A DNA stretch of 32,000 nt, from NCBI RefSeq assembly GCF_000179635.2, contig NC_014833.1, forward strand, positions 2,640,001 through 2,672,000, read 5' to 3'. The translations under genes and the position numbers were made by a program. Positions 152-22,533 of this stretch are shown piece after piece; positions within the stretch are counted from its first letter, which is position 1, and each line of letters starts with the position of its first letter. The notes under the pieces were generated by a model that made no database searches, had not been told where the DNA came from, and saw only the letters and a program-made list of their open reading frames with translations. The stretch is from Ruminococcus albus 7 = DSM 20455. GTDB taxonomy: Bacteria; Bacillota; Clostridia; Oscillospirales; Ruminococcaceae.

Positions 152-1612
152 ATGGGAACCGAGTCGATCATTATTATTTGCGTTATAGTTGCGGTACTTT
201 TCGCAGCACTTATGGCTATACTTTCAAGATACAGAAAATGCCCTTCGGACAAGGTGCTGGTCATCTACGGTAAGGTAGGTACAGACAAGAACGGACAGGC
301 AAGGAGTGCAAGATGTATCCACGGCGGTGCGGCATTCATCATGCCTGTAATACAGTCCTATGAGTACATGGACCTGACACCTATATCCATAAACGTTGAC
401 CTGAAAAATGCGCTTTCAAAGCAGAATATCCGTATCGATGTTCCTTCAAGATTCACAGTTGGTATCTCTACCGAACCCGGCATCATGCAGAACGCCGCTG
501 AAAGACTTCTCGGTCTGAAGCTGATGGAGATACAGGAACTGGCTAAGGATATCATCTTCGGTCAGCTGAGACTTATCATCGCTACAATGGATATCGAAGA
601 GATCAACTCCGACAGAGACAAGTTCCTGCTGGCAGTATCCAACAACGTTGAGATCGAGCTGAAAAAGATCGGTCTGAAACTGATAAACGTTAACGTTACC
701 GATATCACAGACGAGTCCGGATATCTGGAAGCTCTCGGTAAAGAGGCTGCTGCAAAGGCTATCAACGACGCTAAGAAGAGCGTTGCAGAGAAGCACAGAG
801 ACGGTGAGATCGGTCAGTCGCACGCACAGAAAGAGCAGAGGATCGAAGTTGCAGCTGCAAACGCTGACGCTATCAAGGGTGAGAACGATGCTAAGGTAGC
901 TGTTGCACAGTCCGAGGCTGAGAGAAGAGAAAGAGAAGCAGAATCTCTGCGTAAGGCTACCGCTGCCGAAGCAGTTCAGGCTGCAAAGGCTAAGCAGGAA
1001 GCTTACATCGCTCAGCAGGAAGCAGAGCTTACAAGAGCAGAGCTGGAAAAGGCTACACAGAAGGCTGACGTTATCGTTAAGGCTGAGATCAGCAAGCAGC
1101 AGGCTGAGATCCAGGCTGAGGCACAGGCTGAAGTTACAAGACGTAAGGCAAAGGGTGAAGCTGACGCTATCTTCGCTAAGATGGAAGCTGAGGCTAAGGG
1201 TAATCAGGAGATACTCACCAAGCAGGCAGAAGGTCTGAAGCAGATAGTTGCTGCTGCAGGCGGTGATGCTGATGCGGCTGTAAGACTTATCATCGCTGAC
1301 AAGATGGAGCAGCTGATAGCTATTCAGGTAGAGGCTATCAAGAACATCAAGATCGACAAGATCACTGTTTGGGACAGCGGCGCTAACGGCGGACAGGGCG
1401 GCGGCTCTACCGCTAACTTCCTCAGCGGTCTGATGAAGAGCGTACCTCCTCTGAACGATCTGTTCGAGCAGGCAGGTATGTCACTGCCCGAGTTCCTTGG
1501 CAAGGACATGAAGGATGCTCTGGAGAAGTCCCGCGAGGAGGCTATCCAGAGAGTTGCAGCAGAGGAAGCTGAAAAGCTTGGCAGCAACGATGTTGAGATA
1601 ATCGAGCAGTAA
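152..1612 (+). CDS. Flotillin-family (SPFH/band-7) membrane scaffold protein
   Basis: 486-aa ORF with GGAG at 141-144 upstream of the ATG at 152. It has an N-terminal hydrophobic anchor (IIIICVIVAVLFAALMAILS), an SPFH-like core, and a long Ala/Glu/Lys/Gln coiled-coil region (AEAERREREAESLRKATAAEAVQAAKAKQEA...) typical of bacterial flotillins. Confidence 0.9.
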   Translation: MGTESIIIICVIVAVLFAALMAILSRYRKCPSDKVLVIYGKVGTDKNGQARSARCIHGGAAFIMPVIQSYEYMDLTPISINVDLKNALSKQNIRIDVPSRFTVGISTEPGIMQNAAERLLGLKLMEIQELAKDIIFGQLRLIIATMDIEEINSDRDKFLLAVSNNVEIELKKIGLKLINVNVTDITDESGYLEALGKEAAAKAINDAKKSVAEKHRDGEIGQSHAQKEQRIEVAAANADAIKGENDAKVAVAQSEAERREREAESLRKATAAEAVQAAKAKQEAYIAQQEAELTRAELEKATQKADVIVKAEISKQQAEIQAEAQAEVTRRKAKGEADAIFAKMEAEAKGNQEILTKQAEGLKQIVAAAGGDADAAVRLIIADKMEQLIAIQVEAIKNIKIDKITVWDSGANGGQGGGSTANFLSGLMKSVPPLNDLFEQAGMSLPEFLGKDMKDALEKSREEAIQRVAAEEAEKLGSNDVEIIEQ

Positions 1613-4191: not shown

Positions 4192-5799
4192 ATGCTGATA
4201 TGCAATAATTGCGGCAAGACAGGTAAACGCGGAAAATTCTGTGTATACTGCGGCGGTGAGCTGACCGAGTTTTTTACGCTGAAGACCGCTGAAAATAATG
4301 ATGCCCCAAAGGGTAAATGCCCACAGTGCGGAAAGGAATTCGCAGGGGGCAAGTTCTGTGTGTTCTGTGGAACAAAGCTTGATATGGGAGATCAGGAGAA
4401 CGCTTCGGCACTTGTTCAGGAGATACCTGCGCAGGAAGTAAGCGAAGTTCCTGTTTCTGAGCCTGTACAGGAAGTCATCGAAGCTCCTGTAGAAGATGTC
4501 GTTCAGGAAATCACCGAAACTCCTGTCGAAGAAACCGTTCAGGAAGTGAACGAAACCACTGTTGAAGAGGTCGTTCAGGAAATCACCGAAACCACTGTTG
4601 AAGAAGCCGTTCAGGAAACAGAACCTATCGAAGCACCTGTACCTGATGTATCATCTGAGGATAACGGCTTTAAATGCAGCGTATGCGGAAAGCTTCACAG
4701 CAAGGGAAAATTCTGCACAGTATGCGGAGGTGCTCTTGTACCTGTTGACAGCGGATCTGACAAAAGCGCTGTTCCTTCACCTGCGGCATCAGCTGCTGTT
4801 ACGCTGAAATGCGCTAAATGCGGCAAAGTTCATAGCGGCGGAAAGTTCTGTACCGCTTGCGGAGGTGAGCTTGTAGCTGCCGATGAAGCAGCTGATACAT
4901 CAACAAAGGAAGAAACTGCTGCGCCTTCACTTATATGCGAAGTATGCGGAAAGCCCCATGAAAAGGGCAAGTTCTGTACCGCTTGCGGAGGTAAGCTGAT
5001 AAACGCAAATGCTGCAAATCAGACCGATTCGACACCTGAGCCTGCACCGTCTGTTATACCAACACCGGTATCTGCGTCAACGGCAGAAACTTCTGCACCC
5101 GTAACTCAGGTTGCTGGCAAGCTTGTTTGCAAGGAGTGCGGAAAAGCGCATGAGAAAGGCAAATTCTGCACCGCCTGCGGAGGACAGCTCATTCCTGCCG
5201 ATGATACCCCTGCGGCACCTGAAAGTGCTCCTGTTGCGGAATGGCTGAAATGTTCGGTATGCGGTAAGCTTCATGACAAGGGCAAATTCTGCACATCATG
5301 CGGAGGTCAGCTTGTATCTGCAAGTGCGGCAGCTGACACGGTTTCGGCTATACCCACCCCTGTTACACCTGTATCATCGGTGATACCTACACCTGTATCC
5401 GCTCCCCTGCCGAATACATCAACAGCGCCAATATCTGCACCTCTCCCTGCAAGCACTGAAACATCGGGCAAACTGGTATGCAAAGTGTGCGGCAAGATAC
5501 TCGACAAAGGCAAGTTCTGCACTGCCTGCGGCGGTGAGCTGGTTCCTATGGAAAGTCAGACGGTGAGCGCTCCTATTGCAGAAAACAGCAGTCTTGTATG
5601 CCCTTCCTGCGGCAAGACATTTGAACGCGGCAAATTCTGTACCACCTGCGGCGCTACTCTCGTTCCGCAGACTTCGGCTGCAGCTCCCGTCAATGACGGA
5701 AAACTGCACTGCGTACAGTGCGGCAAGATATTTGACCACGGCAAGTTCTGCACATCATGCGGAGGTCAACTTGTTACTTCGGATAAGCTGAATGTGTGA
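4192..5799 (+). CDS. Poly-zinc-ribbon protein (10 tandem CxxC...CxxC zinc-ribbon units separated by low-complexity linkers)
   Basis: AGGAGG (4180-4185) precedes the ATG at 4192. The 535-aa product has ten units of the form C-x2-CGK-x4-GKFC-x2-CG-x-L, for example KCSVCGKLHSKGKFCTVCGGALVP and VCKECGKAHEKGKFCTACGGQLIP. Linkers are rich in Pro/Ala/Ser/Thr/Val/Glu. There is no signal peptide or TM segment. Confidence 0.85.
   Translation: MLICNNCGKTGKRGKFCVYCGGELTEFFTLKTAENNDAPKGKCPQCGKEFAGGKFCVFCGTKLDMGDQENASALVQEIPAQEVSEVPVSEPVQEVIEAPVEDVVQEITETPVEETVQEVNETTVEEVVQEITETTVEEAVQETEPIEAPVPDVSSEDNGFKCSVCGKLHSKGKFCTVCGGALVPVDSGSDKSAVPSPAASAAVTLKCAKCGKVHSGGKFCTACGGELVAADEAADTSTKEETAAPSLICEVCGKPHEKGKFCTACGGKLINANAANQTDSTPEPAPSVIPTPVSASTAETSAPVTQVAGKLVCKECGKAHEKGKFCTACGGQLIPADDTPAAPESAPVAEWLKCSVCGKLHDKGKFCTSCGGQLVSASAAADTVSAIPTPVTPVSSVIPTPVSAPLPNTSTAPISAPLPASTETSGKLVCKVCGKILDKGKFCTACGGELVPMESQTVSAPIAENSSLVCPSCGKTFERGKFCTTCGATLVPQTSAAAPVNDGKLHCVQCGKIFDHGKFCTSCGGQLVTSDKLNV
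4465..4644 (+). repeat. In-frame 36-nt (12-aa) tandem repeat, about 5 copies, inside the zinc-ribbon gene
   Basis: Units begin at 4465, 4501, 4537, 4573 and 4609. They encode VQEVIEAPVEDV / VQEITETPVEET / VQEVNETTVEEV / VQEITETTVEEA / VQETEPIEAPV. Confidence 0.85.
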
Positions 5800-6321: not shown

Positions 6322-6359
6322 AAAGGCACTTCTGACAAATATATGTCAAAAGTGCCTTT
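6322..6359. terminator. Bidirectional terminator hairpin between convergent units
   Basis: AAAGGCACTTCTGACA (6322-6337) pairs with TGTCAAAAGTGCCTTT (6344-6359) with one mismatch. The hairpin is T-rich on the 3' side of both strands. Confidence 0.75.
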
Positions 6360-6363
6360 GTAT

Positions 6364-7119
6364 TTATTCTTTGCATTTATCAAGAAGTGTATCAACGACA
6401 AATTCCGCAAAATCACCATCGCCTTTAAAAACGCTTCGGTTGGGGTTTTTAAGGAGCGGATCAAGTGCTTCCGGGATAATGGCGTGGTCTGCTTCTTCAA
6501 GCATGGGCAGGTCGATGGTGCTGTCACCTGCGGCGATGATGAATGCACCGCTCTCGCCCTGTGCAAGACGTTTGAGCGCTCTGCCTTTGGTGATATCGGG
6601 CGGCAGGAAGTATATCTTTCTACCCGAGGGCATTACATCAAGTTCGGTGAGTTTTCCGTATCTGTCCATAAATTCGTCCACATATTCCGGCTTTGCACAG
6701 GATATATAAAGGTACATCTCATCGACAATACGCACCACATTCAGCTTCTCGTTGCCGTCAAGCTCGGCGCGGAGCTTTTCCATAAGGGGCATCAGTTCAT
6801 CGGCATAGCGCTTTTCACGGTTGCGCCATTCTTCATTCTGAATGCCATTCTCTATCAGTATTGCACCGTTGGTGGTTATTGCCCTGGTGTAACAGCCTTC
6901 GGGCAGTTGTATCCTTTCAAACTGCGCCACCGAACGTGTCGTAAGCGGGACAAGTTCGACATTTTCGGGTAGAGAGGACAGATGTGAGCAGACTTTTGCG
7001 CTCATGAAACCCTGTTCTGCACCGTTCAGAAGTTCAACGCATATATCGCCCTCACGCCTGTGCTTATAGGAATGTATCAGCGTATTATCGAGGTCACTTG
7101 CAATCAGTATCTTTCTCAT
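6364..7119 (-). CDS. HAD-superfamily phosphatase (Ter-associated biosynthetic module)
   Basis: The ORF track starts at GTG 7158. ATG 7119 (MRKILIASDLDNTLIHS) places the DxDxT motif at the N-terminus and lies 1 nt after the upstream stop (TGAtATG). The motif IV-like sequence is AAGDSTIDLPML. Confidence 0.8.
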   Translation of the reverse strand: MRKILIASDLDNTLIHSYKHRREGDICVELLNGAEQGFMSAKVCSHLSSLPENVELVPLTTRSVAQFERIQLPEGCYTRAITTNGAILIENGIQNEEWRNREKRYADELMPLMEKLRAELDGNEKLNVVRIVDEMYLYISCAKPEYVDEFMDRYGKLTELDVMPSGRKIYFLPPDITKGRALKRLAQGESGAFIIAAGDSTIDLPMLEEADHAIIPEALDPLLKNPNRSVFKGDGDFAEFVVDTLLDKCKE

Positions 7120-7120
7120 A

Positions 7121-8176
7121 TCAGTTATCCGCCATCGCTTTGATAAGACCGCAGGCACGGTAGTGTTTCAGCGGATACTCAACAAGCTCACAGCCCTTTT
7201 CTTCGGCAAGCTGATAAAGATGTCCCAGATGCTCATTATCATCCAGGCTGTGTACCAGCATTTTCCAGGGCATACGGCGCAGCAGCACTCTTGTGGCTTC
7301 ACCTATGCTGGGCTTTACAAGATTGATATCAGCGATACCGTATTCCTGACAGATGGCTTTTACCTCCTCCATAGTATTTTCGGCTGTATCGGCAGCATTA
7401 TCGTTAAGGTCATAGTCATCAAAGCTGAAATGCTCCTCTACTGTATCTATAAACTTATATGTGAGGTCCTTATGGGCAAGCTCCTTGTAGTACACCGCAC
7501 CGTGAAAGTCCTTTTCGCCTATGATATCGCTTCTGAGGAAAGTCCTGCTGAGAAGTCCCGATACTGTGGAATTAAGGCAGCTGCTGGCGATAAGAAAATC
7601 ATCGTGAGTGCCGCATTTTTCAGAGATAAAGGCGGGGTCGGAAAGAACACCCAGCCCGGGACTGACTTCTGGATAATCCTTCATAGCTTCTTCCAGCTGA
7701 CGGGTGATAGCGCCTTTGCCTGTCCAGCCGTCGATGAACTGGATATCCTGAGGTCTGTGTCTTTCAAGGATATAGTTCATGGCATTTTTGTCTATGCCCC
7801 TGCCGCGGATTATAGAGATAGTATAGTGAGCGACATTTATTCCGTACTTTCTGTCCATATAGTGTTTCAGCAGTACACCGATAGAAGTGCCTGCCCTCGC
7901 AAGGGATACAAGCACTGCGTTTTCGCCCTTGTCCTTAAATATCAGCTGACCCAGCCTGCCCACAGCCTCGGCGGTGATGCCGCTGTACATATCAAGGGCT
8001 GTATAGAATGACTTCATGTACTGCTCGGAGGGTTCGTACTCTATTGGCAGCATCTCACAGTAGTGTCTGCCGCCCTGTATAAGCTTTTCTCTCTCCTCGG
8101 TGCTCTGAGGTTTTACCTTACCTGTGATATCTTTGAGAAGAATCGTAACGTCTTCATTTTTATATGAACCAAACAT
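7121..8176 (-). CDS. PRTase_1 / 'cysteine protease StiP'-family protein (divergent phosphoribosyltransferase fold)
   Basis: 351 aa. The N-terminus MFGSYKNEDV, SLARAGTSIGVLLKHY and the degenerate PRPP-loop-like FIDGWTGKGAI match my memory of this Ter-linked family. The start is 3 nt after the upstream stop (TAGcagATG), with AAAGGA as RBS. Confidence 0.6.
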   Translation of the reverse strand: MFGSYKNEDVTILLKDITGKVKPQSTEEREKLIQGGRHYCEMLPIEYEPSEQYMKSFYTALDMYSGITAEAVGRLGQLIFKDKGENAVLVSLARAGTSIGVLLKHYMDRKYGINVAHYTISIIRGRGIDKNAMNYILERHRPQDIQFIDGWTGKGAITRQLEEAMKDYPEVSPGLGVLSDPAFISEKCGTHDDFLIASSCLNSTVSGLLSRTFLRSDIIGEKDFHGAVYYKELAHKDLTYKFIDTVEEHFSFDDYDLNDNAADTAENTMEEVKAICQEYGIADINLVKPSIGEATRVLLRRMPWKMLVHSLDDNEHLGHLYQLAEEKGCELVEYPLKHYRACGLIKAMADN

Positions 8177-8179
8177 CTG

Positions 8180-9331
8180 CTATATCCTTTCAACAATTAT
8201 CTCATTACATCCGTAATGGTGAAACAGTGCTGCAAGCTCATTCATGGCATCAGTATTTTCGGGGGCTGAATCTGTTACGATAAGCACAGAATCGTACTTT
8301 TTAATATCGTACAGGAAAGTCTGCCTGCCTTTTTCGTAGAAGCTTTGCAGCTTATATCCGTTGAATACGGGATAGTCTGCGGCTTCGCATATCCCTATGG
8401 GACTGCGGGTGGTGGCATGGAACTTCACGCTGTTGTATCTGCCGCTGTTTTCAAGCTTTTCAGCTATGATAAGACCTGCATACATACATTCCTCGGTGCC
8501 GATGACGGCTATATCTTTCCCTGTGGGTATCATGGTGCTGTCGGCTGAATCTATCATATCATGCCGTGATAGGATGCTGTCAGCATACTCCCCTATCTTA
8601 ACACCTGTTCTGGGTGTAGTGCAGGGATCAGGTTTAGTAAGGCATGATGCTTTTATCATACTGTCAGCTTCAGGCAGGTCATCTGCACCGCGGATATTGA
8701 ATGCGTTTACTGTATCTGTATAGTCAATATTCTCTATCTTCAAAAGCTGTCTGCAGATCATGCCGCGGCTTTCAAGGCGGCTGATATTCTCATCGCTCAT
8801 GCGGTTTATGACCGAAGCGGCAACTATCCTTTTGTCGCAAAGCTGAGGAAATTCATCCCTCATCTGTTCTATCATATTGATAAGGGTCTTGCCTGTAGAG
8901 AACTCATCGTCCACGAATATGACAGTATCGGTATCACCGAGGGCTGCAGCAAAGCCGTCTGCAGAAAGCTTCTGCTCGGTAGCATGGCTGTGTTCCTCCT
9001 GAAATTCTATCCACCTGCTGACCTCCGTTACTTCCTCACGGGTGGTCTGTATATATGTACAATCCCTGCCCATACATTCAGCAACGGCAGCACCAATGGC
9101 TGTAGCGGTTTCGGCAAAGCCTACCACAAGCTTTGTACCCGGAAATTCCCTGCTCAGTTCTCCGCCAAGAGTGCGCATCATAGCAAGGGATGCCTTGGGA
9201 CTGACAGGTATATGCTTGCCCTGCAGGGGGTCTACCAGAAGATAGGTGCGCTTTGTGTTGTGAAAGCGTTTTGCAAGACGCATAAGCTGTTCCACGGAAT
9301 ATCTTTTTATCGTGGTCTGTTGGTTTTCCAT
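8180..9331 (-). CDS. Phosphoribosyltransferase (PRTase_2-like) fused to a C-terminal TRSP domain
   Basis: 383 aa with AAGGAG as RBS. The classic PRPP-binding loop is VIFVDDEFSTGKT. The C-terminal region contains the eponymous motif HATTRSPIG. Confidence 0.75.
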   Translation of the reverse strand: MENQQTTIKRYSVEQLMRLAKRFHNTKRTYLLVDPLQGKHIPVSPKASLAMMRTLGGELSREFPGTKLVVGFAETATAIGAAVAECMGRDCTYIQTTREEVTEVSRWIEFQEEHSHATEQKLSADGFAAALGDTDTVIFVDDEFSTGKTLINMIEQMRDEFPQLCDKRIVAASVINRMSDENISRLESRGMICRQLLKIENIDYTDTVNAFNIRGADDLPEADSMIKASCLTKPDPCTTPRTGVKIGEYADSILSRHDMIDSADSTMIPTGKDIAVIGTEECMYAGLIIAEKLENSGRYNSVKFHATTRSPIGICEAADYPVFNGYKLQSFYEKGRQTFLYDIKKYDSVLIVTDSAPENTDAMNELAALFHHYGCNEIIVERI

Positions 9332-9423
9332 ATTTTATCTCCTTTGTCCAAATAATATATGCTCAGTAAAATGCCCGTGATATCCTCACAGACATTTTAC
9401 CGTTCACATAGTCATTACCGTAA

Positions 9424-9455
9424 ACACGGCTCGCACAAAAACGTGTGAGCCGTGT
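9424..9455 (-). terminator. Hairpin after the ATPase gene (possible weak terminator or attenuator)
   Basis: 12-13 bp stem cacggctcgcac / gtgtgagccgtg with one G:T pair. On the minus strand it is followed only by TTTAC, a poor U-tract. Confidence 0.35.
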
Positions 9456-9472
9456 ACAGTATGATATTTGTT

Positions 9473-12238
9473 TTATTCAGCCTTAGCAGGTGCAGATACT
9501 GCCTTTCTGATAAGATCGACAGGTATCATGGTGAGTGCCATGAGTACTACTACGATCCAGCCTGAGATACCGAAAGGTACACAGCTGAACATCTTACCCA
9601 GCCACTGGAAAGGTGCCAGGGGGATAAGTGCGCAGTTTACGATCACTGCCTGAACAGCCATAATTGATATCATAGTCTTCAGGAAACCGGGATTAAGGTT
9701 CAGACCCTTGAAGATGCCGAACTTTTCATCTCTAACATTGAAGCCGTTGGCAAGTGCGCTGACAATAAACAGTACGAAGTAGCCTGTCTTCAGTTTCTCG
9801 ATATTACCGCCGAAGAAGTTCTGGCAAAGCAGACCCTTGGAAAGATCCTTCATAACGTCGCCCACGCTGTTGCCTGCTGCAGGGATCAGGAAGTACAGGA
9901 AGCTCATGATAGTCAGCCATGCGCCCATTACACCGATCTGTACAGCCATAGGCTTGCTGATGATGCTCTCATCTCTTCTTCTGGGCTTCTCGCGCATATA
10001 CTTCTCAAATGCGGGCTCATTACCCAGCATGATAGCGCCAAGACCGTCCATAACGAGGTTGACGAACAGCAGGTGTGTTACCTTCAGGGGTTCTTCGATA
10101 CCGAAGAAAGGTCCGAAAGCGGATACCAGTACAGCTGCAACGTTGATCACCAGCTGGAACTTACAGAATTTAAGGATATTGTTGTAGATGGTTCTGCCGT
10201 AGAGGATAGCATCCTTGATGGACTTGAAGTTATCATCGAGGATAACGATCTCGCCTGCTTCCTTGGCAGCTTCGGTACCGCTGCCCATAGCAAAGCCGAC
10301 ATCAGCCTTTTTAAGTGCAGGGCTGTCGTTTACGCCGTCGCCTGTCATACCTACAACGAGGTTCATTTCCTGACAGATCCTTACCATTCTTGACTTATCT
10401 GTAGGAAGCGCTCTTGCAATAACACGGATATCTCTTACGATCTTCTTTACTTCGTCATCAGACATCTTGTTGAGTTCAGCAGAAGAAAGTGCTATATCCT
10501 TGTCACTCTTGATAAGACCTGCATCCTTAGCGATAGCCTTTGCGGTTTCAAGACGGTCACCAGTGATCATAACTACCTGGATGCCTGCCTCCTGTACCTC
10601 GTGGATAGCTTCCTTAGCCTCGGCACGAACATCATCACGTATACCAACAAGACCGATGATAACAACATCATCATTGATCTCATTCTCTACCATAGGCTTT
10701 TCGGAATAACCAAAGCTCAGTACACGCATTGCCTTGTTTGCAAGTGCATCGATCTTTTCGTTCAGCTTGTCCATATCTATATCCTTGATATTGCCGTCGG
10801 CATCAAGGTACTTTGCAGCCTTTGCGAGAAGTCTTTCGGGAGCGCCCTTGTAGAAGGTCTTGCCCAGATTATCTATTCTGGACTGGCTGAACTTGTTAGC
10901 GGAGTTGAAGCCCTGATATGTGGTGACTTCATATTCCTTGTTATCCTTCAGTGCATTGAAATCAGCCTCACCGATGAAGTGCATCAGAGCCTGATCTGTG
11001 AAGTTACCGCCGATGACATTGTGGTTGCCGTCGAACAGTGACTGTGTATTCTTACCGATGGAGATATCCAGCAGTTCTTTGACTTTCTTGCTGTTTGCAA
11101 GCTTGTCTGCGGGAACGACTTCGCCGTCAGCAGTGAAGAATTCAACAACTTCAAGCTTACCCTTTGTGATAGTACCTGTCTTATCGGAGAACAGAACGTT
11201 CAGCGAACCTGCTGTTTCAATACCGACAGCCTTGCGGACAAGTACGTTATGGTCGAGCATCTTGCTGGTGTTCTGCATAAGAACAAGGGAAATCATCAGC
11301 GGCAGACCTTCAGGTACTGCGCAGACAACTATGATGATAGCGATAGATACACCTTCAACAAACTTGCCTATGATATCACCGATAGTCCAGTTCTCTGTTA
11401 TATTGAAGAAAACAGAGGGACCCTTGCCAAGTATCTCACCGGCATCGGTAGTTACATTTGCAAAGAAAATGAAATAGATCATGTAAACGATAGCTATAAC
11501 GATAGCAGAGATATAACCGAATACGGAGATCTGCTTAGCAAGCTTGGCAAGCTTTACCTTCAGAGGTGAATCTGGTTCTTCCTCATTCATCTCCTCAGCC
11601 ATCTTACCCATCATGGTCTTCAGACCGACCTGTCTTACATCGAGGTATCCCTCACCGTCGATACATACAGCACCTCTGAACAGCGAGTGTTCATCAACGA
11701 AGGTATCACCTGTGATATCTGTAGGCATCTCAAAGCCTGCCTCAGCAGCAGTCTTTTTACATTCCTCTGCCTCACCGTTAAGTGCGGAGTTATCGACTTT
11801 GATATTGCCGTGTACAAGCACACCGTCTGCGGGTATTTTGTCACCGGACTGGAGAAGTATCAGGTCACCCTGAACGACATCATCCACTTCGATAACATTG
11901 GTTGCACCGTCACGGATCGCCTTACACTTATCCTTTTCGGAATTTTCCTTGAGCTCGATATACTTCTGGTCGCTGGCTACATTAGTCTTTGCAGAAACAA
12001 ATGCTACTATCAGTACAGCAACTATGGTACCAACAGGCTCATAAGGTTCAGCATAACCTACGAAAGCCATTATTATCATCAGTACTGCTATAGCCAGCAG
12101 TATCTTGATCATAGGGTCACCGAAGGTTTCAAGAAACTCTTTCAGGAACGTCGTGGGCTCAGCCTCAGGTATGGCATTGGAGCCGTTTTTGGCGCGTGAT
12201 TCTTCGACCTGCTTTGAGGTCAAACCTTTAAGATCCAT
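9473..12238 (-). CDS. P2-type (Ca2+-translocating) P-type ATPase
   Basis: The ORF track starts at TTG 12271. ATG 12238 (MDLKGLTSKQVEESR) follows AAGGGAG by 9 nt. Diagnostic motifs are the DKTGT phosphorylation site (FSDKTGTITKG), the TM4 PEGLP (AVPEGLPLMISL), TGDGVNDSPALKKADVGFAMG, and about 10 TM segments. Confidence 0.9.
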   Translation of the reverse strand: MDLKGLTSKQVEESRAKNGSNAIPEAEPTTFLKEFLETFGDPMIKILLAIAVLMIIMAFVGYAEPYEPVGTIVAVLIVAFVSAKTNVASDQKYIELKENSEKDKCKAIRDGATNVIEVDDVVQGDLILLQSGDKIPADGVLVHGNIKVDNSALNGEAEECKKTAAEAGFEMPTDITGDTFVDEHSLFRGAVCIDGEGYLDVRQVGLKTMMGKMAEEMNEEEPDSPLKVKLAKLAKQISVFGYISAIVIAIVYMIYFIFFANVTTDAGEILGKGPSVFFNITENWTIGDIIGKFVEGVSIAIIIVVCAVPEGLPLMISLVLMQNTSKMLDHNVLVRKAVGIETAGSLNVLFSDKTGTITKGKLEVVEFFTADGEVVPADKLANSKKVKELLDISIGKNTQSLFDGNHNVIGGNFTDQALMHFIGEADFNALKDNKEYEVTTYQGFNSANKFSQSRIDNLGKTFYKGAPERLLAKAAKYLDADGNIKDIDMDKLNEKIDALANKAMRVLSFGYSEKPMVENEINDDVVIIGLVGIRDDVRAEAKEAIHEVQEAGIQVVMITGDRLETAKAIAKDAGLIKSDKDIALSSAELNKMSDDEVKKIVRDIRVIARALPTDKSRMVRICQEMNLVVGMTGDGVNDSPALKKADVGFAMGSGTEAAKEAGEIVILDDNFKSIKDAILYGRTIYNNILKFCKFQLVINVAAVLVSAFGPFFGIEEPLKVTHLLFVNLVMDGLGAIMLGNEPAFEKYMREKPRRRDESIISKPMAVQIGVMGAWLTIMSFLYFLIPAAGNSVGDVMKDLSKGLLCQNFFGGNIEKLKTGYFVLFIVSALANGFNVRDEKFGIFKGLNLNPGFLKTMISIMAVQAVIVNCALIPLAPFQWLGKMFSCVPFGISGWIVVVLMALTMIPVDLIRKAVSAPAKAE

Positions 12239-12290
12239 ATAATTATACTCCCTTACAGATTTATCCAACAAAAACGTTAGAAATATTTGT

Positions 12291-12330
12291 CAGAAAATAA
12301 GGAGAAACCGCGGCGCCGCCGCAGTTCTCC
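12291..12330 (-). terminator. GC-rich hairpin plus U-tract between terD and the ATPase gene (partial terminator or attenuator)
   Basis: Minus strand: GGAGAACTGCGGCGGCGCCGCGGTTTCTCC followed by TTATTTTCTG. Confidence 0.5.
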
Positions 12331-12359
12331 TGTTTTCTCGGTTTAGATTCGGGTCTTTA

Positions 12360-13010
12360 TCACATACCCGCATATCTCTTGGCGAGATCGGCTATGCTGC
12401 CGTCATTGGTACCCTGACCAATGGCATTGAACTTCCATTCGTTGCCGTGTCTGTATATCTCACCGAATACCATAGCAGTTATGCCGGGGTAGCTCTCGGT
12501 AAGATTGTACCTGCATATCTCATTGTTGTTCCTGCCGTCCACCAGCCTGATGAATGCATTTCTTATCATGCCGAAATGCTGGTTCTTCTGCATAGCATGG
12601 TAGATATTTACAGAAACTACTATCCTGTCATACATCGGAGGCACCTGTGAGAGATCTACAACGATCTGCTCATCATCACCGTCACCCGCACCTGTCAGGT
12701 TATCGCCCATGTGGACTACAGAACCTGTTGCATGACGAAGATTGCCGTAGTATACGATATCGTTCTTGTTTGTGAGTCTGCCGCCCTGAAGGAGGAAAGC
12801 CGAAGCATCGCAGTCGATAGTATCGCCGCCGACACTCTGCATATTTCCGGAGGTGTTTCCGCCGAAGAGGTTGGAGAAGAATCCACCCTGCTTCTGCTGT
12901 GCGGGTGCAGGCGCAGCCTCATCCCAGCCCAGACCGACAATTACCTTTGAAAGTCCTGCACTCTCTTTTGAAAGGCTGACTTTTTGTCCTTTTTGCAGAT
13001 TGATAGACAT
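12360..13010 (-). CDS. terD: TerD-domain protein (Ca2+-binding type), paralog 1
   Basis: N-terminus MSINLQKGQKVSL...VGLGWD. Metal-site motifs are DCDASAF and [21 protein letters not shown]. The C-terminal motif is [11 protein letters not shown]. Confidence 0.9.
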   Translation of the reverse strand: MSINLQKGQKVSLSKESAGLSKVIVGLGWDEAAPAPAQQKQGGFFSNLFGGNTSGNMQSVGGDTIDCDASAFLLQGGRLTNKNDIVYYGNLRHATGSVVHMGDNLTGAGDGDDEQIVVDLSQVPPMYDRIVVSVNIYHAMQKNQHFGMIRNAFIRLVDGRNNNEICRYNLTESYPGITAMVFGEIYRHGNEWKFNAIGQGTNDGSIADLAKRYAGM

Positions 13011-13028
13011 GATCTGATCGCTCCTTAA

Positions 13029-13610
13029 TTACTCAGCGTCGATGCCGTAGTGACCGCAAAGTGCAGCCAGACCGCCCTGGAAGCCGCTGCCGATAGCGTT
13101 GAACTTCCACTCGCCGTTATTTCTGTAAAGCTCGCCTACAACGATCGCAGTTTCGATGGAGAAATCCTCACCCAGATCATATCTGATGATCTCCTCACCG
13201 GTTGCCTGATCTACAACACGGATGAAGGAATTGGATACCTGACCGAAGTTCTGTCTTCTGTTGTCAGCATCATATATAGTAACAGTGAAAGCTATCTTGG
13301 AGATATTTTCAGGGATCAGGCTCAGGTCGATCATGATCTGCTCGTCATCGCCGTCGCCGCCGCCTGTCAGGTTATCACCCATGTGCTTAACAGAACCGCT
13401 TGCGTGCTCAAGGTTGCCGTAGAAGATGAATTCCTTCTCGGTGGGGCATCTGCCGCTGTCATCTACCATGAATGCAGCTGTATCCAGGTCGAAATCAGAA
13501 CCTGAATCGAATGCGTTTACGTCCCAGCCCAGACCTACCATGATATTCTTCAGTCCGGGATTACCCTTTGTTAAGCTTACTTTCTGTCCTTTGCTAAGAT
13601 TGATAGGCAT
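13029..13610 (-). CDS. terD: TerD-domain protein (Ca2+-binding type), paralog 2
   Basis: The ORF track starts at 13697, but AGGAGG plus 8 nt precedes ATG 13610 ([13 protein letters not shown]). Motifs are [28 protein letters not shown] and [12 protein letters not shown]. Confidence 0.9.
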
Positions 13611-13696
13611 AATATTGTCCTCCTTATAAATACATTTTGGCTTATTGCCTTTCTTTTGGTTTCGGGCTTTCGCCCATTTATCTCTCCGTATTTGCA

Positions 13697-13725
13697 ATTA
13701 TAGCAGATTTTACCCTGCTTGTCCA
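13697..13725 (-). promoter_or_regulatory. Internal promoter upstream of the terD pair
   Basis: Minus strand: TGGACA (13725-13720), 17-nt spacer, extended -10 TGcTATAAT (13702-13697). It sits in the 165-nt telA-terD gap. A GGGCgaaaGCCC hairpin lies in the predicted leader. Confidence 0.5.
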
Positions 13726-13775
13726 GCTACGCAAGTTGGAACTTCCGCAACGGGCAGTTGCAATTTACAGACAGC

Positions 13776-14963
13776 TTACTTTCTCTTGTCGGGAACATCG
13801 TAGTGAGCCTTGAAATCCTGCTTGATAGCTTCAAGTCTTACCTTATCTTCCTGACGCTTCTTCTTAGCCTCAGCCTCGATACCTCTTGTTTCCTCGATAC
13901 CGTTCATGATGGTCTTCCATGTGGTCTCGAGAGTTTCGATCTGTATGGAGCTGCCTGAAGCAAGTCTTGCGGTCATCTTGGACTGCTCAACTGTATTATG
14001 TGCATTCTTTATGAGCATCTCGTTTGTCTTCTGATCGAGTGCTGCCATAGACTCAGCCTGTATCTTCTGACGTTTCAGAAGTATAGCCTGTGCCAGAGCC
14101 TGCTTGAATATAGGCAGGGTGATTATGAATGCGGAGTTTATCTTTCTTACCAGGTTGTAGTTTGAGAACTCCATGGTCTTGAGCATTGGTATGGACTGCA
14201 TAGCAACGTTCTCGGCTGTTCTCAGGTCCTGTACTCTCTGTTCAAGCATCATAAGAGCCTGATTGAGGGACTGGAGCTCGAACTGTATGGAGTTGTCGCC
14301 TGTCTTGGTAAGCTCATCCTGCTTCTGTGCTATGTAAGCTTCCAGCTCACGGCAGCCCTGCTCACCTGCGAGTATATACTTTACAAGGTCGTGATAGAAG
14401 TTAACATTAGCCTCGAACATGGTGTTCAGCTTTCTGTTGGACTGCTTGATCTCATCCTCATATTTTCTCAGCTGAACGTAGATCTTATCCACCTCGTCAC
14501 CCATAGTATGGTACTTTGCGAGTATCTTATCCAGCTGTTTTCTTGCGTTGTTGAAGAACTTCTTGAAGAACGAGGGATCGTCCTTTATCTCATCAACATC
14601 GAACTTAGACATGATATTGGCAAGCACCTGCATAAGCTGGCTGGTCTCGTCGATCTGTGTCATATTCATGCTGTTGAGCACCTGGTCGGAAGCCTTTGCT
14701 ATCTCGTCGGCAGCCTCAGCGCCGAAGGTAACGATAGAATCCAGGTTATCAAGCTCGATAGTGCTTACAAGAGCATCTACCTCGGGTGAATTTACCAGCT
14801 CGGTGGTCATCTGCTCTCTGTCAGCCACGATATCGTACTTTTCTACTACTGAAAGCTCTGTCTCCTGTGCCACAGGAGCAGCAGCTGCGGTAGGTATTGC
14901 GTCTGTTGTCGGTGCTGCTGCAGGTGCGGCCTGGGGAGCAGCCTTTGAAAAATCAAGTCCCAT
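13776..14963 (-). CDS. telA: TelA-family toxic-anion-resistance protein (YceH-like)
   Basis: 395 aa. An Ala/Pro-rich N-terminus is followed by a long helical body resembling TelA/YceH. The start lies 2 nt after the upstream stop, with GAGAGG as RBS inside the upstream gene's end. Confidence 0.8.
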   Translation of the reverse strand: MGLDFSKAAPQAAPAAAPTTDAIPTAAAAPVAQETELSVVEKYDIVADREQMTTELVNSPEVDALVSTIELDNLDSIVTFGAEAADEIAKASDQVLNSMNMTQIDETSQLMQVLANIMSKFDVDEIKDDPSFFKKFFNNARKQLDKILAKYHTMGDEVDKIYVQLRKYEDEIKQSNRKLNTMFEANVNFYHDLVKYILAGEQGCRELEAYIAQKQDELTKTGDNSIQFELQSLNQALMMLEQRVQDLRTAENVAMQSIPMLKTMEFSNYNLVRKINSAFIITLPIFKQALAQAILLKRQKIQAESMAALDQKTNEMLIKNAHNTVEQSKMTARLASGSSIQIETLETTWKTIMNGIEETRGIEAEAKKKRQEDKVRLEAIKQDFKAHYDVPDKRK

Positions 14964-14965
14964 AG

Positions 14966-17251
14966 TTATTTACCTCTCTTAAATATTCTTTCTCGCCATG
15001 AAGTTGGCTGTTTTTTAACTACAAATCTTCTCAGGTCTGGCACGTTAAGGTCGTAGACGTACTGCCCTACCTGATGCTCCTCCATAACGGTGGAGCTGAA
15101 GAATTTCTCAACGCTCTGATACCCTGTGGGCACGAAGAATACTATATCGAAGCCTATAAGGTTCAGGAATGCGATGATTATTGAATCCTCCAATGATATT
15201 ACCCTTTCGCCGGGATTTACATATACCAGCTTGGGGTTTGACTTTGTAAAATCAAAACTCTGTATCTTTCTGACCATATCCATATTCAGGTTCATTATGG
15301 TCGCAACTATCGTATACTCTGTGCCGTTTTCAAAAGTGCCCTTTATCATACGGCTGTCGATGAGCAGCTGAAGCTTATCGAGTATATGATCCTGTATCTC
15401 ATCCCTCAGGAAACCGTAGTGGTAGCTGGGGTGATTCTTTATCACCTGTCTTTGCAGCACTCCCCTTTTCAGGAACTCAGTGCTGTAGCTCTTCATCTCG
15501 TTATAGCTGTCAGAGCTTATATACGGCGCCTGTGTGATAAGGAATGTATCGGGGGTCAACAGCTGCTTGATGCTGCCCCAGTACTGTTCAAGGTCGCCGT
15601 CCTTTACACCTGATACCTTTGCGAAGATGACGGGCATATTCACCACGTCTTCAACTGTACTGAAATTCGGACGGTATTTAAGTTCCTCTTTCCAGAGCAG
15701 TGCTATCTCCTCGTACATTGTCTTTAGTGTTACCGCATTGGCCTTGGAATACTGCCTGTTGCGGTATATACCCGAGTCCTGATACATCAGTGTATCCAGT
15801 TCGCGCTCGGCATGGTACGCAAGGGTAGGCATCTGCAGCTGAGTAGTCTCCGACGGGAATTTCTTCGCATCAAGAGTTTCAGCACAATTCTGCTCAAACA
15901 GCAGCTTATCTTTAAGGCAGCACTTATCAGCGCTAAGGTCGGGCACCAGTATCAGCACATCCACAGGCAGCCTTGCCAGAAATCTCAGGAACATGGCTTC
16001 GTGCTCGTTCTTGCAGCCGCCCATGAGTATGAAGCAGGCAAGTTCGGGCATACGCCAGTTTGTGAAAAGCTGCGCCATATAGCGTTTCAGCCAGCATATC
16101 ATATATACTGCCTTGTTGGTCAGCCTGTTGAGGTTGCTCGGATCAGCCGCACATTCGCCCAGCATGATATCCACAAAGTTTTTCGCCATTACCCTCTGCA
16201 GTTCGATGTTATTGCCGTAGCGTATCTGCAAAGCCAGATCGGCTATCATCTGTTCGGGCTGGTTATAGTATTTTCTCGGCACACCGTTTATCTCGTCCGG
16301 TGACGGCAGAGGTATGCCCTCATCTATCACCACGACTTTTCTGCCGTTCTTTTTAAGTTCAAGCTGCATCTGATAAAGGTCATTGAGGTAAGTCATCTTA
16401 TCCCACACACCGTTTATCCTTGTGAAGATGTTATAATACATCTTCGGGTCAGAACCTCTCTCATTAGCTGGACGCTTGAAATCGGATATATGATCCTCTT
16501 CTCCGCTGAGCCATGCATTTGTGCAGTTAGTGAACCTCGGTTCAGCCCCGTATAGCCTCTGCCTGTTCGCCTGAGCCTGCTGCATCTGACGCATATTGTT
16601 AAGGCTGAAACCGTCGGGGAAAGCCCCCAGTCCTGCGATATCCAGTTTGAAGGAATCGGCTGACTGCGGATCGAGTTTCAGATATTCATCATCACCATGA
16701 TACTGCAAAAGCACCACATCGCATCCTGCGTTTGAAAGTACGGTTATCAGCAGAAGTTCATAGTTGCTGATATCGCCCTCATAGAGTATCTTAGGCACCT
16801 TGCTCTCACCAAGCTGAGAAGTCACGCGCTCAAACTTATAGTAAAGCCAGCACATGAATTTGATATAACAGTTTTTCAGCATATTATCATTTTTACCCTG
16901 AGTTCTCAGCACACTCAGTGTATTGTATATAGAGCCTGCAACGGCACTGCGCTGGTATTCACTCATACGGGGGAGCCATTTTTTCAGCTTCATATTCAGG
17001 AAGTTCAGATCCATTTTGAAATCCATGCCCATCATTTCTTCAAAATAGGCGAGGTTCTTGTTATCGGGATTTGGTATCCTGCCCTCGATGATGACACCGC
17101 CTGTGCGTGCGGCTTCATAATATTTTTTCAAAAATTCCGCTACCTGCTCGTTATATCCGCAGAAGCGGTAAAAATAAACTCCTTTTTCGGGTCTTGCGCT
17201 AAGTTCCTTGAAGTAGTCATCAAGCCCGACCAATCTCTTATGTTCAAACAT
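14966..17251 (-). CDS. Large soluble protein, YceG-like (Ter-associated protein of unknown function)
   Basis: 761 aa, with no TM segment or signal peptide. The call rests mainly on position immediately upstream of, and coupled to, telA, as in B. subtilis yceG-yceH. I recognise no catalytic motif. Confidence 0.45.
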   Translation of the reverse strand: MFEHKRLVGLDDYFKELSARPEKGVYFYRFCGYNEQVAEFLKKYYEAARTGGVIIEGRIPNPDNKNLAYFEEMMGMDFKMDLNFLNMKLKKWLPRMSEYQRSAVAGSIYNTLSVLRTQGKNDNMLKNCYIKFMCWLYYKFERVTSQLGESKVPKILYEGDISNYELLLITVLSNAGCDVVLLQYHGDDEYLKLDPQSADSFKLDIAGLGAFPDGFSLNNMRQMQQAQANRQRLYGAEPRFTNCTNAWLSGEEDHISDFKRPANERGSDPKMYYNIFTRINGVWDKMTYLNDLYQMQLELKKNGRKVVVIDEGIPLPSPDEINGVPRKYYNQPEQMIADLALQIRYGNNIELQRVMAKNFVDIMLGECAADPSNLNRLTNKAVYMICWLKRYMAQLFTNWRMPELACFILMGGCKNEHEAMFLRFLARLPVDVLILVPDLSADKCCLKDKLLFEQNCAETLDAKKFPSETTQLQMPTLAYHAERELDTLMYQDSGIYRNRQYSKANAVTLKTMYEEIALLWKEELKYRPNFSTVEDVVNMPVIFAKVSGVKDGDLEQYWGSIKQLLTPDTFLITQAPYISSDSYNEMKSYSTEFLKRGVLQRQVIKNHPSYHYGFLRDEIQDHILDKLQLLIDSRMIKGTFENGTEYTIVATIMNLNMDMVRKIQSFDFTKSNPKLVYVNPGERVISLEDSIIIAFLNLIGFDIVFFVPTGYQSVEKFFSSTVMEEHQVGQYVYDLNVPDLRRFVVKKQPTSWRERIFKRGK

Positions 17252-17358
17252 TCAGACATACCCTTATTTATCCGCTTAATAAGCCCTTATATCGGCTTTT
17301 TGCGGAGCATTATTTCTTTTTGGATAAAACCGATTATACGGCTTTATTTTCCTCAATT

Positions 17359-17388
17359 ATTATACCTCATTTCACGAATAAAAGTCAA
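17359..17388 (-). promoter_or_regulatory. Promoter of the Ter-type operon
   Basis: Minus strand: TTGACT (17388-17383), 18-nt spacer, TATAAT (17364-17359). It gives a leader of about 100 nt before the ATG at 17251. Confidence 0.6.
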
Positions 17389-17543
17389 GGGTTATTCATA
17401 GTTTTGACTTCGATTCGTTAATTTATATATATCGGCTCGCTTATACTTAGTCATTTCATATAAAGTGAATATGATGATATTGTTAAAAACGTACTAACGG
17501 TCATTTAAAGCTCCAGCGTGTCAAATCACATTGTTTTAATAAG

Positions 17544-21377: not shown

Positions 21378-22397
21378 TCAGAACTGCTCCAGGAACCTCA
21401 TATCGTTCTCATAAAGCAGACGCATATCGTTTATGCTGTAACGTCCCATGGTGATCCTTTCAAGACCGATGCCGAAGGCGAAACCGCTGTATACCTCGGG
21501 ATCTATGCCGCATTCTTCAAGCACCTTGGGGTGTACCATACCTGAACCAAGAAGCTCTACCCAGCCTTCCTGCTTGCACATGGAACAGCCCTTGCCGTGG
21601 CAGTTGAAGCACATCAGATCGACCTCTGCTGAAGGCTCGGTGTAGGGGAAGTGGTGGGGTCTGAATCTTACCTGAGTTTCCTCGCCGTAAAGACGCTTCA
21701 TCAGCAGTTCAAGAGTACCCTTGAGGTCAGCCATAGTAATGCCCTTGTCGATAACAAGACCCTCGATCTGGTGGAACAGAGGTGAATGAGTAGCGTCAAC
21801 AGCATCAGAACGGTAAACTCTGCCGGGGGAGATTATACGGATAGGAGGCTTTCTGTTCTCCATAGTCCTTATCTGAACGGAGGAGGTCTGTGTTCTCAGC
21901 AGAACGTTCTCATTGATATAGAAAGTATCCTGAGTATCTCTTGCAGGGTGATGCTTGGGCATATTCAGTGCCTCAAAGCAGTAGTGGTCTGTTTCTACCT
22001 CGGGACCTTCAACGATATCGAATCCCATGCCGAGGAATACTTCCTCTACCTGCTCCAGTGTAACCTGCAGGGGGTGTGCCCTGCCTATCTTCATAGGCTT
22101 GCCGGGGAGAGTAACGTCAAGTCTTTCAGCTTTAAGGCGAAGTTCCTCAGCCTTGCTTTTCAGCTCTTCCTTGCGTGCATTGAGAGCTTCCTCGATATCG
22201 CTTCTCACCTTGTTTGCCAGCTGACCGATAACAGGTCTTTCCTCAGCGGAAAGCTTGCCCATCTGCTTGAGTATAGCAGTCAGCTCACCCTTTTTGCCGA
22301 GGAACCTTACGCGGAAATCCTCCAGCAGCTTGATGTCGCTGATACCCGAAAGTTCGGATTTAGCGCGTTCTTCGATACTGGTTAACTGTTCTTTCAT
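21378..22397 (-). CDS. pheS: Phenylalanine--tRNA ligase alpha subunit
   Basis: 339 aa. Class II aaRS motifs are present ([30 protein letters not shown]). AGGAGG is the RBS. Confidence 0.95.
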
Positions 22398-22426
22398 AAT
22401 TTATCCTCCTAAAATAATACTTAACT

Positions 22427-22533
22427 TATATACTAAACTCTATTGCAAAATACGCATATAAAGCTCACATGAGCTATGCTTTTTGCAATTGGGAGCTTTA
22501 GAGGCGCATATTTTGCTATAGAGTTTAGTATAT
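22427..22533. repeat. ~107-bp element with ~29-bp near-perfect terminal inverted repeats, lying between the methyltransferase gene and pheS
   Basis: The arms are tatatactaaactctattgcaaaatacgc (22427-22455) and gcgcatattttgctatagagtttagtata (22504-22532), with 1 mismatch and a 1-nt bulge. The 48-nt centre contains the sub-palindrome AGCTCAtgTGAGCT. The right arm overlaps the methyltransferase stop codon (22533-22535). Confidence 0.8.

Follow-up and report, generated by a model that had tools for sequence, protein, structure and literature searches.

In the current analysis we have examined a stretch of 32,000 nucleotides from the chromosome of Ruminococcus albus 7 (NC_014833.1, positions 2,640,001 to 2,672,000), referred to as the window, which encodes on its minus strand, from position 17251 down to 6364, a Ter-type cluster of eight open reading frames (ORFs). 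In the order of transcription the products are a YceG-like protein (YceG_bac), TelA, two TerD proteins, a P-type ATPase of the plasma-membrane Ca2+ ATPase (PMCA) type, a phosphoribosyltransferase (PRTase) with PRTase_2 and TRSP domains referred to here as PRT2, a StiP protein with PRTase_1 and PELOTA_1 domains, and a phosphatase of the HAD-IIB class. All eight have been placed by Pfam far above the gathering scores. The definitions of the Pfam families are said to derive from the analysis of Ter systems by Anantharaman, Iyer and Aravind in 2012.

A first-pass annotation of this DNA had proposed eight co-directional genes of these families. All the genes have been confirmed as minus-strand ORFs and every predicted family has been recovered by profile hidden Markov models of Pfam; a check set beforehand on the products encoded at 7121-9331 and 14966-17251 has placed both in Ter-associated families. 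The motifs quoted in that annotation are likewise found in the translations. The TerD pair carries a motif of the GDNxTGxGDGDDE type (GDNLTGAGDGDDE in TerD2), PRT2 contains VIFVDDEFSTGKT and HATTRSP, and the HAD phosphatase contains DLDNT and GDSTID. Three start codons have been corrected, that of terD1 to ATG 13610 from TTG 13697, that of the ATPase gene to ATG 12238 and that of the HAD gene to ATG 7119 (Table 1). The corrected starts match independent gene calls on metagenomic contigs that encode a StiP identical to that of the window.

We conclude with high confidence that the locus is a real and conserved Ter-type stress cluster, chromosomal and vertically inherited in the R. albus group. 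Clusters of this type are widespread in Clostridia and Negativicutes, and among the approximately 90 loci examined the present one is the smallest, with two TerD genes and without genes for C-C lyase, ATP-grasp, rhomboid, AIM24 or protease proteins. The kind of system is already known, and the locus is an ordinary vertically inherited member of it. What sets it apart is an architecture devoid of TerC and TerB, organised around a Ca2+ pump and cut down to two TerD proteins and three enzymes.

Table 1. Genes and regulatory features of the Ter-type cluster, with positions in the window
Feature	Coordinates	Strand	Basis
Conserved upstream box 1 (TTAACAATATCATCATA)	17470..17486	-	Near-invariant in 6 R. 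albus-group loci, flanks divergent; candidate regulator site
Conserved upstream box 2 (ATAAATTAACGAATCGAA)	17409..17426	-	Just 5' of the -35 hexamer; conserved in 6 loci; candidate regulator site
Promoter P(yceG), TTGACT-18-TATAAT	17359..17388	-	11/12 consensus match
5'-UTR (untranslated region) hairpin before the yceG ribosome-binding site	17262..17312	-	-14.2 kcal/mol, z = -2.3
yceG-like gene (761 aa, three YceG_bac repeats)	14966..17251	-	Pfam PF14266, 2.5e-126
telA (395 aa)	13776..14963	-	Pfam PF05816, 5.9e-98
Internal promoter P(terD), TGGACA-17-TATAAT, extended -10	13697..13725	-	11/12 match; conserved in 6/6 R. albus-group loci
terD1 (193 aa)	13029..13610	-	Pfam TerD, 5.2e-84; start by AAGGAGG ribosome-binding site and gene call
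terD2 (216 aa, insertion of ~30 aa)	12360..13010	-	Pfam TerD, 2.4e-73
Intrinsic terminator/attenuator after terD2	12292..12331	-	-22.3 kcal/mol, z = -4.7, followed by UUAUUUUCU
PMCA-type (P2B-like) Ca2+ P-type ATPase gene (921 aa)	9473..12238	-	TIGR01517, 527.2 bits against a cut-off of 507.05
Hairpin after ATPase gene	9424..9455	-	-21.2 kcal/mol, z = -5.0, weak U-tract
PRTase_2 + TRSP gene, PRT2 (383 aa)	8180..9331	-	Pfam PF15609 (1.8e-47), PF12500 (6.3e-21)
StiP/PRTase_1 + PELOTA_1 gene (351 aa)	7121..8176	-	Pfam PF11202 (9.6e-102), PF15608 (1.8e-29)
HAD-IIB (Cof-like) phosphatase gene (251 aa)	6364..7119	-	Pfam Hydrolase_3; weak sub-cut-off NCBIfam HAD-IIB/Cof-type matches
Terminal hairpin between convergent HAD and u154 genes	6323..6358		-23.1 kcal/mol, z = -9.4

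Gene order in related genomes

A survey of gene neighbourhoods, suggested by the first-pass annotation, has been carried out with one genome per GTDB species and with the PRTase_2/TRSP gene as the anchor. It yielded 80 loci with flanks of 10 kb, which were annotated by tblastn with the proteins of the window and with extra families identified by Pfam; eleven further contigs with Pfam-labelled gene calls were added. Forty-one loci have full flanks and are referred to as full-span. The survey is anchored on PRT2 and YceG and represents mainly Clostridia and Negativicutes.

The modules are conserved together across the survey. R. albus AR67 and KH2T6 have the nearest genomes, at amino-acid identities of 80-96% per protein, and the exact eight-gene order is present in all the R. 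albus-group loci that span the cluster (L001, L002, L004-L006, L081 and L087-L089) and in no other group. The same gene set occurs in permuted orders in Oscillospiraceae, Lachnospiraceae and Selenomonadaceae. Flavonifractor, Oscillibacter, Lawsonibacter and their relatives among the Oscillospiraceae have the order YceG-TelA-TerD x3-4-ATPase-(rhomboid)-PRT2-StiP-(YceG::trypsin)-HAD, with the C-C lyase nearby. The order in Selenomonas and other Oscillospirales is ATPase-TerD-AIM24-TerD...-lyase-ATPgrasp-PRT2-StiP-HAD, and that in Lachnospiraceae is PRT2-StiP-ATPgrasp-lyase-DUF445-trypsin-rhomboid-YceG-TelA-TerD x3-ATPase-HAD.

The PRT2-StiP-HAD block is nearly universal (77 and 71 of the 80 loci), the C-C lyase is encoded in 57 of the 80 and the ATP-grasp protein in 21. 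The description of the window cluster as a minimal variant is borne out by these figures, as TerC, TerB, ATP-grasp_Ter and the C-C lyase are all missing from the window. Tblastn queries with ATPgrasp_Ter and C-C_Bond_Lyase have found nothing in it, and its only ATP-grasp is a CarB-like ORF at 29521-31722. Both the lyase and the ATP-grasp are lacking in 12 of the 41 full-span loci, the R. albus group included, and the three-enzyme module is therefore not unique to the organism of the window. TerC and TerB are encoded neither in the 32-kb window nor in any gene-called relative locus. They are also not found among the 25 families listed for 114 representative unassigned neighbour ORFs, a list that includes every family matched by at least two ORFs and leaves out most families matched by a single one.

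In some Oscillospiraceae clusters a YceG_bac domain is fused to a trypsin-like serine protease (12224-13672 in L083/L084 and 12182-13663 in L008), and a rhomboid protease is encoded between the ATPase and PRT2 in many clusters of this family. These domain associations suggest that the larger versions include a proteolytic step missing from the version in the window.

Contigs filed as viral in IMG/VR carry TelA-TerD x3-ATPase-HAD-lyase-PRT2-StiP or parts of this arrangement. They comprise two contigs of 85 and 108 kb (L094 and L098) and three of 244-345 kb (L096, L097 and L099), and their viral origin is putative.

Association of TerD with a PMCA-type ATPase

TerD1 of the window aligns over its full length with TerD of Klebsiella (2KXT/2KXV; 3e-68) and its acidic GDNxTGxGDGDDE motif is intact. 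Pan and co-workers reportedly described this acidic motif in 2011 as a Ca2+-binding site, and the Klebsiella structure as that of a two-site Ca2+ binder.

The P-type ATPase comprises the Cation_ATPase_N, E1-E2_ATPase, Hydrolase and Cation_ATPase_C domains of Pfam and is the sole integral-membrane component of the cluster. It scores under the NCBIfam cut-offs of every other pump equivalog and far under those of the heavy-metal P1B models. The best matches in the PDB are the plant PMCA-type pump ACA8, LMCA1 of Listeria and human PMCA (1e-101). Alignments to 8QMP and 9EUQ reveal the motifs DKTGT, PEGL in transmembrane segment (TM) 4 and TGDGVND. TM5 has an N, with an A at the position of E771 of SERCA, and TM6 has NLVMD (NxxMD); this pattern points to a single Ca2+ site of the PMCA type rather than the SERCA arrangement. 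A CPC-type TM motif is lacking.

TerD is encoded in 32 of the 41 full-span loci, and the ATPase gene immediately adjoins a TerD gene in 30 of these 32. The adjacency persists across at least three different gene orders and is also seen on the IMG/VR contigs. The earlier view that a cation pump had been added to the cluster of the window is thus not upheld. The pump is the standard partner of TerD across the clade, apparently in the place that TerC has in classical operons. No mention of an association of TerD with a P-type ATPase has been found in the papers searched that are later than the 2012 analysis. A 2026 paper on gut jumbo phages notes that TerD genes occur in these phages together with a gene for a Ca2+ P-type ATPase, but draws no link between them (PMC12880540).

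The phosphoribosyltransferases and the HAD phosphatase

In the PRPP (phosphoribosyl pyrophosphate) loop of PRT2, VIFVDDEFSTGKT, a comparison of 18 homologues shows D142, E143, S145, T146, G147, K148 and T149 to be invariant and D141 to be almost so; HATTRSP is invariant in them as well. Weak matches to the Pribosyltran and APRT/HPT families are also observed. PRT2 has the PRPP loop of the type I phosphoribosyltransferases and is predicted to be an enzyme. It is the fastest-diverging protein of the cluster, with 72-80% identity between the window and the loci L001-L006 against 83-96% for most of the others and 72-87% for HAD; across families its identity is about 45% against about 65% for the others. 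PRT2 of the window is also devoid of an N-terminal extension of ~30 aa present in the R. albus orthologues.

StiP is referred to in Pfam and NCBI as a cysteine protease, a name that comes from an Acinetobacter study as cited in PMC11994780. The AlphaFold2 (AF2) model of StiP has a pLDDT of 76.6, and its top 50 Foldseek matches in the PDB are mostly PRTases (PyrR, HGPRT and XGPRT, with probabilities of 0.97-1.0), together with a few low-TM PLP enzymes. No protease is found among these 50, and the fold search thus gives no support to the assignment as a protease. Cys200 is invariant, but lies within a low-confidence loop of the model. The model supports a PRTase fold for StiP, in line with the older PRTase_1 assignment, and the name 'Cysteine protease StiP' is a probable annotation problem. 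A profile-profile comparison of StiP with PRT2 detected no homology (probability 0.3), but is uninformative on account of the low diversity of the alignments. With its short PRPP loop and its PELOTA domain, StiP could possibly have a regulatory or RNA-linked role. The third protein of this block, the HAD phosphatase, has an intact DxDxT motif.

YceG and TelA

The YceG-TelA pair is adjacent in all the 22 loci that possess it. The AF2 model of YceG has a pLDDT of 70.5 and a pTM of 0.47, and in this model the protein appears to be made up of three alpha/beta repeats. No sequence match to YceG has been found in the PDB. In PDB and BFVD the Foldseek resemblance is limited to tandem RecA-like or helicase domains at low TM (<=0.2) and low probability; inspection of the sequence revealed no Walker A or P-loop motif. 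A homologue of YceG is labelled in UniRef as 'putative component of biosynthetic module'.

Transcription signals

The first-pass annotation had described the eight genes as tightly packed behind one good promoter. The promoter at 17388-17359 has been confirmed, and both its hexamers are invariant in six orthologous loci amid diverged surroundings. The tight packing and the single promoter need to be qualified, as conserved signals are also present in three intergenic gaps of ~90-165 nt. The promoter scan of the entire window, with 28 sites against 21.1 expected, does not exceed chance.

The short junctions quoted earlier are all present, namely TAACTATG between yceG and telA with a gap of 2 nt, TAGCAGATG between the PRT2 and StiP genes with a gap of 3 nt and TGATATG between the StiP and HAD genes with a gap of 1 nt. 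These three junctions (1-3 nt) and a further one of 18 nt are compatible with coupling, while the conserved internal promoter, terminator and hairpin stand against one transcription unit. The internal promoter P(terD) lies between telA and terD1. In the terminator after terD2 the stem arms and the U-tract are invariant in six loci and the loop is variable; six loci retain the stem (CACGGCTCACAC/GTGAGCCGTG) of the hairpin that follows the ATPase gene, and an equivalent of the terminal hairpin between HAD and u154 is present in the orthologous loci. We infer from these signals that the cluster is a supra-operon with an internal promoter and terminator rather than one simple transcription unit.

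With a conserved promoter ahead of the TerD pair and a conserved terminator behind it, TerD is predicted to be produced in large excess over the downstream products. No conserved sigma-70 promoter has been found between the terD2 terminator and the start codon of the ATPase gene, and expression of the latter by read-through of the terminator is therefore assumed; the pump and the enzymes are probably all expressed in this way.

The two conserved boxes upstream of P(yceG) are candidate sites for a regulator encoded outside the cluster. Each is present in a single copy, and no further copy that would indicate a regulon has been found in the window. The stem of the 5'-UTR hairpin of yceG is kept in L004-L006 by different sequences. 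A short 5'-UTR hairpin is found also before terD1 (13660-13690, minus strand); in both hairpins the pairing is kept in the relatives through differing sequence, as exemplified by GGGCGAAAGCCC and GGGGCAATACCCC, and neither has a match in Rfam. Control by a riboswitch or another known RNA has been rejected, as no Rfam family reaches its gathering score in the 32 kb and a search at E<=1 between 6000 and 18000 gave one chance-level sRNA match only. The Mn2+ element yybP-ykoY, which is common ahead of TerC genes and P-type ATPases, is among the families thus covered.

Comparison with known Ter systems

Of the features that define a Ter system in the sense of the 2012 analysis, the window has the TerD motif and TelA and lacks TerB, which is frequent rather than obligatory (PMC9240799). 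The PRTase/HAD module has been predicted to make a nucleoside-like compound (PMC7824862, PMC11994780). According to the summary in PMC11994780, a PRTase and a HAD phosphatase are common to the two-enzyme and five-enzyme forms of the module, and the five-enzyme form adds a second PRTase, an ATP-grasp and a TIM-barrel C-C lyase. The cluster of the window encodes the PRTase and HAD together with StiP as second PRTase and falls short of the five-enzyme form.

The cluster of Bacillus altitudinis 3W19 (terB / terD x3 / terC / lyase / PRTase / StiP / HAD / yceG / yceH; PMC11994780) shares with the window the TerD paralogues, TelA, YceG, PRTase_2 with TRSP, StiP/PRTase_1 with PELOTA and HAD, and the function of both has been derived from gene neighbourhoods only. 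The window differs from it in the absence of TerC, TerB and the C-C lyase, in having two TerD genes and in the presence of the PMCA-type ATPase. The yceCDEFGH operon of B. subtilis and B. anthracis (TerD x3, TerC, YceG and TelA) resembles the window in the adjacent YceG-TelA pair, in the TerD paralogues and in being a chromosomal stress operon of Firmicutes. In the window the order is reversed, with yceG-telA first, a Ca2+ ATPase is present instead of TerC, and a PRPP-dependent block of three enzymes has been added. Mutation of yceGH renders B. anthracis sensitive to both tellurite and H2O2, as cited in PMC11994780.

The classical terZABCDEF clusters (with terWXY; IncHI2 plasmids, E. coli O157 and Klebsiella) have TerD proteins with the same acidic GDNxTGxGDGDDE motif and are associated with tellurite, phage and colicin phenotypes. 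They are proteobacterial, borne on plasmids or islands, and encode TerA, TerB, TerC, TerE, TerF, TerZ and the vWA protein TerY, whereas the cluster of the window is core-chromosomal and has the TelA-YceG pair and the P-type ATPase, both of which are missing from the classical clusters. Proteins of the TerC family are exporters of Mn(II), while the core function of ter has been called elusive (PMC12054061).

The larger Clostridial versions (L091 of Lachnospiraceae; L083 and L085 of Oscillospiraceae) have all eight families of the window in common with it, with typical identities of about 60% for YceG, 65-70% for TelA, up to 80% for TerD and 60-70% for StiP. Their ATPase gene invariably adjoins a TerD gene, and the identity of the ATPase is 66-69% in Oscillospiraceae and 31-47% in the remaining architectures. 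The window has none of their lyase, ATP-grasp, rhomboid, trypsin-like protease, AIM24, radical-SAM and kinase genes and lacks their additional TerD genes. The pump differs from PMCA and LMCA1 in its genomic coupling to TerD, which is not known as a feature of either. A calmodulin-binding tail has not been identified in it, no test having been aimed at one.

Proposed function and alternative explanations

We propose that the cluster is a Ter-type module for envelope stress that is linked to Ca2+ and, in addition, makes a nucleoside-like product, a reading to which we give a probability of about 0.55. Within it the identity of the cluster is near-certain, and the mechanism is given odds of roughly one in three. 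Four blocks are distinguished: the yceG-telA pair, probably coupled in translation and situated behind a sigma-70-type promoter, the TerD pair, a predicted single-site Ca2+ exporter of the PMCA type, and PRT2/StiP/HAD. Damage to the envelope by phage, bacteriocin, oxidant or ionophore would let Ca2+ leak into the cell. TerD would bind the Ca2+ and, together with TelA and YceG below the membrane, buffer it or transduce the signal, while the P-type ATPase would expel it, taking the role in divalent-cation export that TerC has in classical ter operons. PRT2 would couple a pre-existing aglycone to PRPP, with StiP assisting or regulating, and HAD would strip the 5'-phosphate to give a nucleoside-like signal or protectant. 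In the absence of a C-C lyase and an ATP-grasp, the aglycone would have to be a common metabolite or one made elsewhere in the genome.

Several observations weigh against this proposal. YceG has neither a recognisable fold nor a catalytic motif, and no significant Foldseek match to it is found in PDB or BFVD. The shortened PRPP loop of StiP (FIDGWTGKG) may make this protein non-catalytic. The Ca2+ specificity of the pump is deduced from its motifs and scores, and P2-type pumps can carry Mn2+ too. No dedicated regulator or sensor gene is present within the cluster, and the terD2 terminator might insulate the downstream genes fully. In 9 of the 41 full-span loci PRT2-StiP-HAD occurs without TerD nearby, which implies that the biosynthetic block can work without the Ca2+ block. 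The claim of the first-pass annotation that product and trigger are experimentally undefined agrees with the literature searched, in which we have found no defined product or trigger and no experimental data on any Ruminococcus locus.

The cluster could alternatively serve in defence against phages or bacteriocins, with Ca2+ influx or membrane perturbation setting off production of a nucleoside-like alarm or toxic analogue while TelA and TerD block entry or abort infection. Phage inhibition and colicin resistance are known for classical ter clusters (Whelan 1995, as cited in PMC12054061; PMC7824862), the TelA, TerD and P-type ATPase families are carried by phages (all three are held in PHROGs; Jug phages, PMC12880540), the whole cluster is found on IMG/VR contigs and PRT2 is its fastest-evolving component. 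The viral nature of those contigs is, however, putative, and no nuclease, protease or pore effector is encoded in the reduced version. PADLOC 2.0 gave only a weak PRTase_III-A match for PRT2 (6.4e-06) and none for the other proteins scanned. The context of pheST and deacetylase on one side and flotillin and dockerin on the other is conserved across species and is not that of a mobile defence island; with a nearly empty PADLOC result and flanks of housekeeping or cellulosome genes, the defence-island reading has been downgraded, and we regard this explanation as unlikely. Somewhat less likely again is that PRT2-StiP-HAD acts on or through RNA, with StiP as a PyrR-like RNA-binding regulator that controls translation or modifies RNA. 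PyrR, an attenuation regulator that binds RNA and has the PRTase fold, is among the closest structural matches to the StiP model, and the C-terminal PELOTA_1 domain, the shortened PRPP loop and the position of StiP as the most conserved protein of the cluster (66-70% identity across families) are consistent with such a role. StiP is nevertheless encoded together with a HAD phosphatase and with a PRT2 whose PRPP loop is canonical, the relatives add the C-C lyase and ATP-grasp typical of small-molecule biosynthesis, and no conserved RNA element has been detected with Rfam.

Resistance to metals or metalloids in the literal sense, with TerD and TelA handling tellurite or oxyanions and the pump exporting toxic Mn, Zn or Cd, is considered doubtful. 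The pump scores as a Ca2+ ATPase of the PMCA type, far below the P1B cut-offs, and has no CPC-type TM motif; tellurite seems implausible as a selective agent in the rumen or gut, and the conserved PRPP-dependent enzymes would be left unexplained. In favour of this reading are the family names and the phenotypes known elsewhere, namely the induction of the Klebsiella ter operon by Te(IV), Zn and Mn, the lower Te and Zn resistance on deletion of terC (PMC12054061) and the altered abundance of TerD with tellurite in B. altitudinis (PMC11994780). It is very improbable that the genes are independent units lying side by side by chance, namely a yceG-telA-terD stress unit, a Ca2+ pump with a housekeeping role and a PRTase/phosphatase operon of the salvage type. 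The conserved internal promoter, terminator and hairpin do separate such blocks, and PRT2-StiP-HAD stands alone in some genomes. The linkage has nevertheless outlasted rearrangement in Oscillospiraceae, Lachnospiraceae and Selenomonadaceae, the ATPase gene lies directly beside TerD in 30 of the 32 TerD-bearing full-span loci, and in Lachnospiraceae the HAD gene follows the ATPase gene while PRT2 and StiP lie upstream of yceG.

Within the preferred reading of a Ca2+-linked stress module, a bolder and rather unlikely extension is that the Ca2+ pump is a true functional displacement of TerC in Clostridia and Negativicutes, and that the common function of Ter systems is control of transients of cytosolic divalent cations (Ca2+) after a breach of the envelope. 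If this were true, Ter would amount to a 'wound response' of bacteria, tied to a second messenger or protectant of a nucleoside-like kind; the eight-gene cluster of R. albus would be its smallest self-contained version, and product and trigger could be identified by reconstitution with three enzymes.

The occurrence of TerD almost always beside a Ca2+-type ATPase across the survey, with no TerC seen, points to divalent-cation handling as the conserved logic, and a natural minimal version narrows the chemistry to PRPP and a common aglycone followed by dephosphorylation. Ter/TelA clusters are common in pathogens and gut commensals and have been linked for ~30 years to tellurite, phage, colicin, antibiotics and survival in macrophages. 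The locus is of moderate interest as a tractable minimal model that offers a Ca2+ clue.

Neighbouring genes

Upstream of the cluster are pheST, ireB and a polysaccharide deacetylase gene. Convergent genes downstream encode a 154-aa orphan, a protein with a ten-fold zinc-ribbon repeat, a dockerin/SH3 protein and a flotillin-like SPFH protein. R. albus AR67 and KH2T6 (L001 and L002) have matching genes on either side of the cluster, and the conserved flanks indicate a vertically inherited locus of the core chromosome rather than a mobile island. No T-box or other Rfam family has been found at gathering thresholds upstream of pheST (21378-22532, minus strand).

The zinc-ribbon protein (4192-5799, plus strand; 535 aa) is comprised of about ten CxxCGK...GKFCxxCGG repeats with linkers rich in Pro, Ala, Ser and Thr. 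Its gene adjoins that of HAD in all six R. albus-group loci and has not been seen beside the cluster in other clades. The SPFH/flotillin-like protein (152-1612, plus strand) is 98% identical to the AR67 and KH2T6 copies, while identity falls to 50-67% for the genes that separate it from the Ter cluster. It is a membrane-microdomain protein encoded near a membrane-stress cluster, with evidence for the linkage confined to the R. albus group.

The CarB-like ORF at 29521-31722 (minus strand, 733 aa) combines the ATP-grasp half of a carbamoyl-phosphate-synthase large chain with an MGS domain and a complete diaminopimelate epimerase (DapF) domain. The ORF represents an unusual fusion, or else a missing stop has joined two genes. 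Its weak match to ATPgrasp_Ter (1e-08) reflects generic ATP-grasp similarity.

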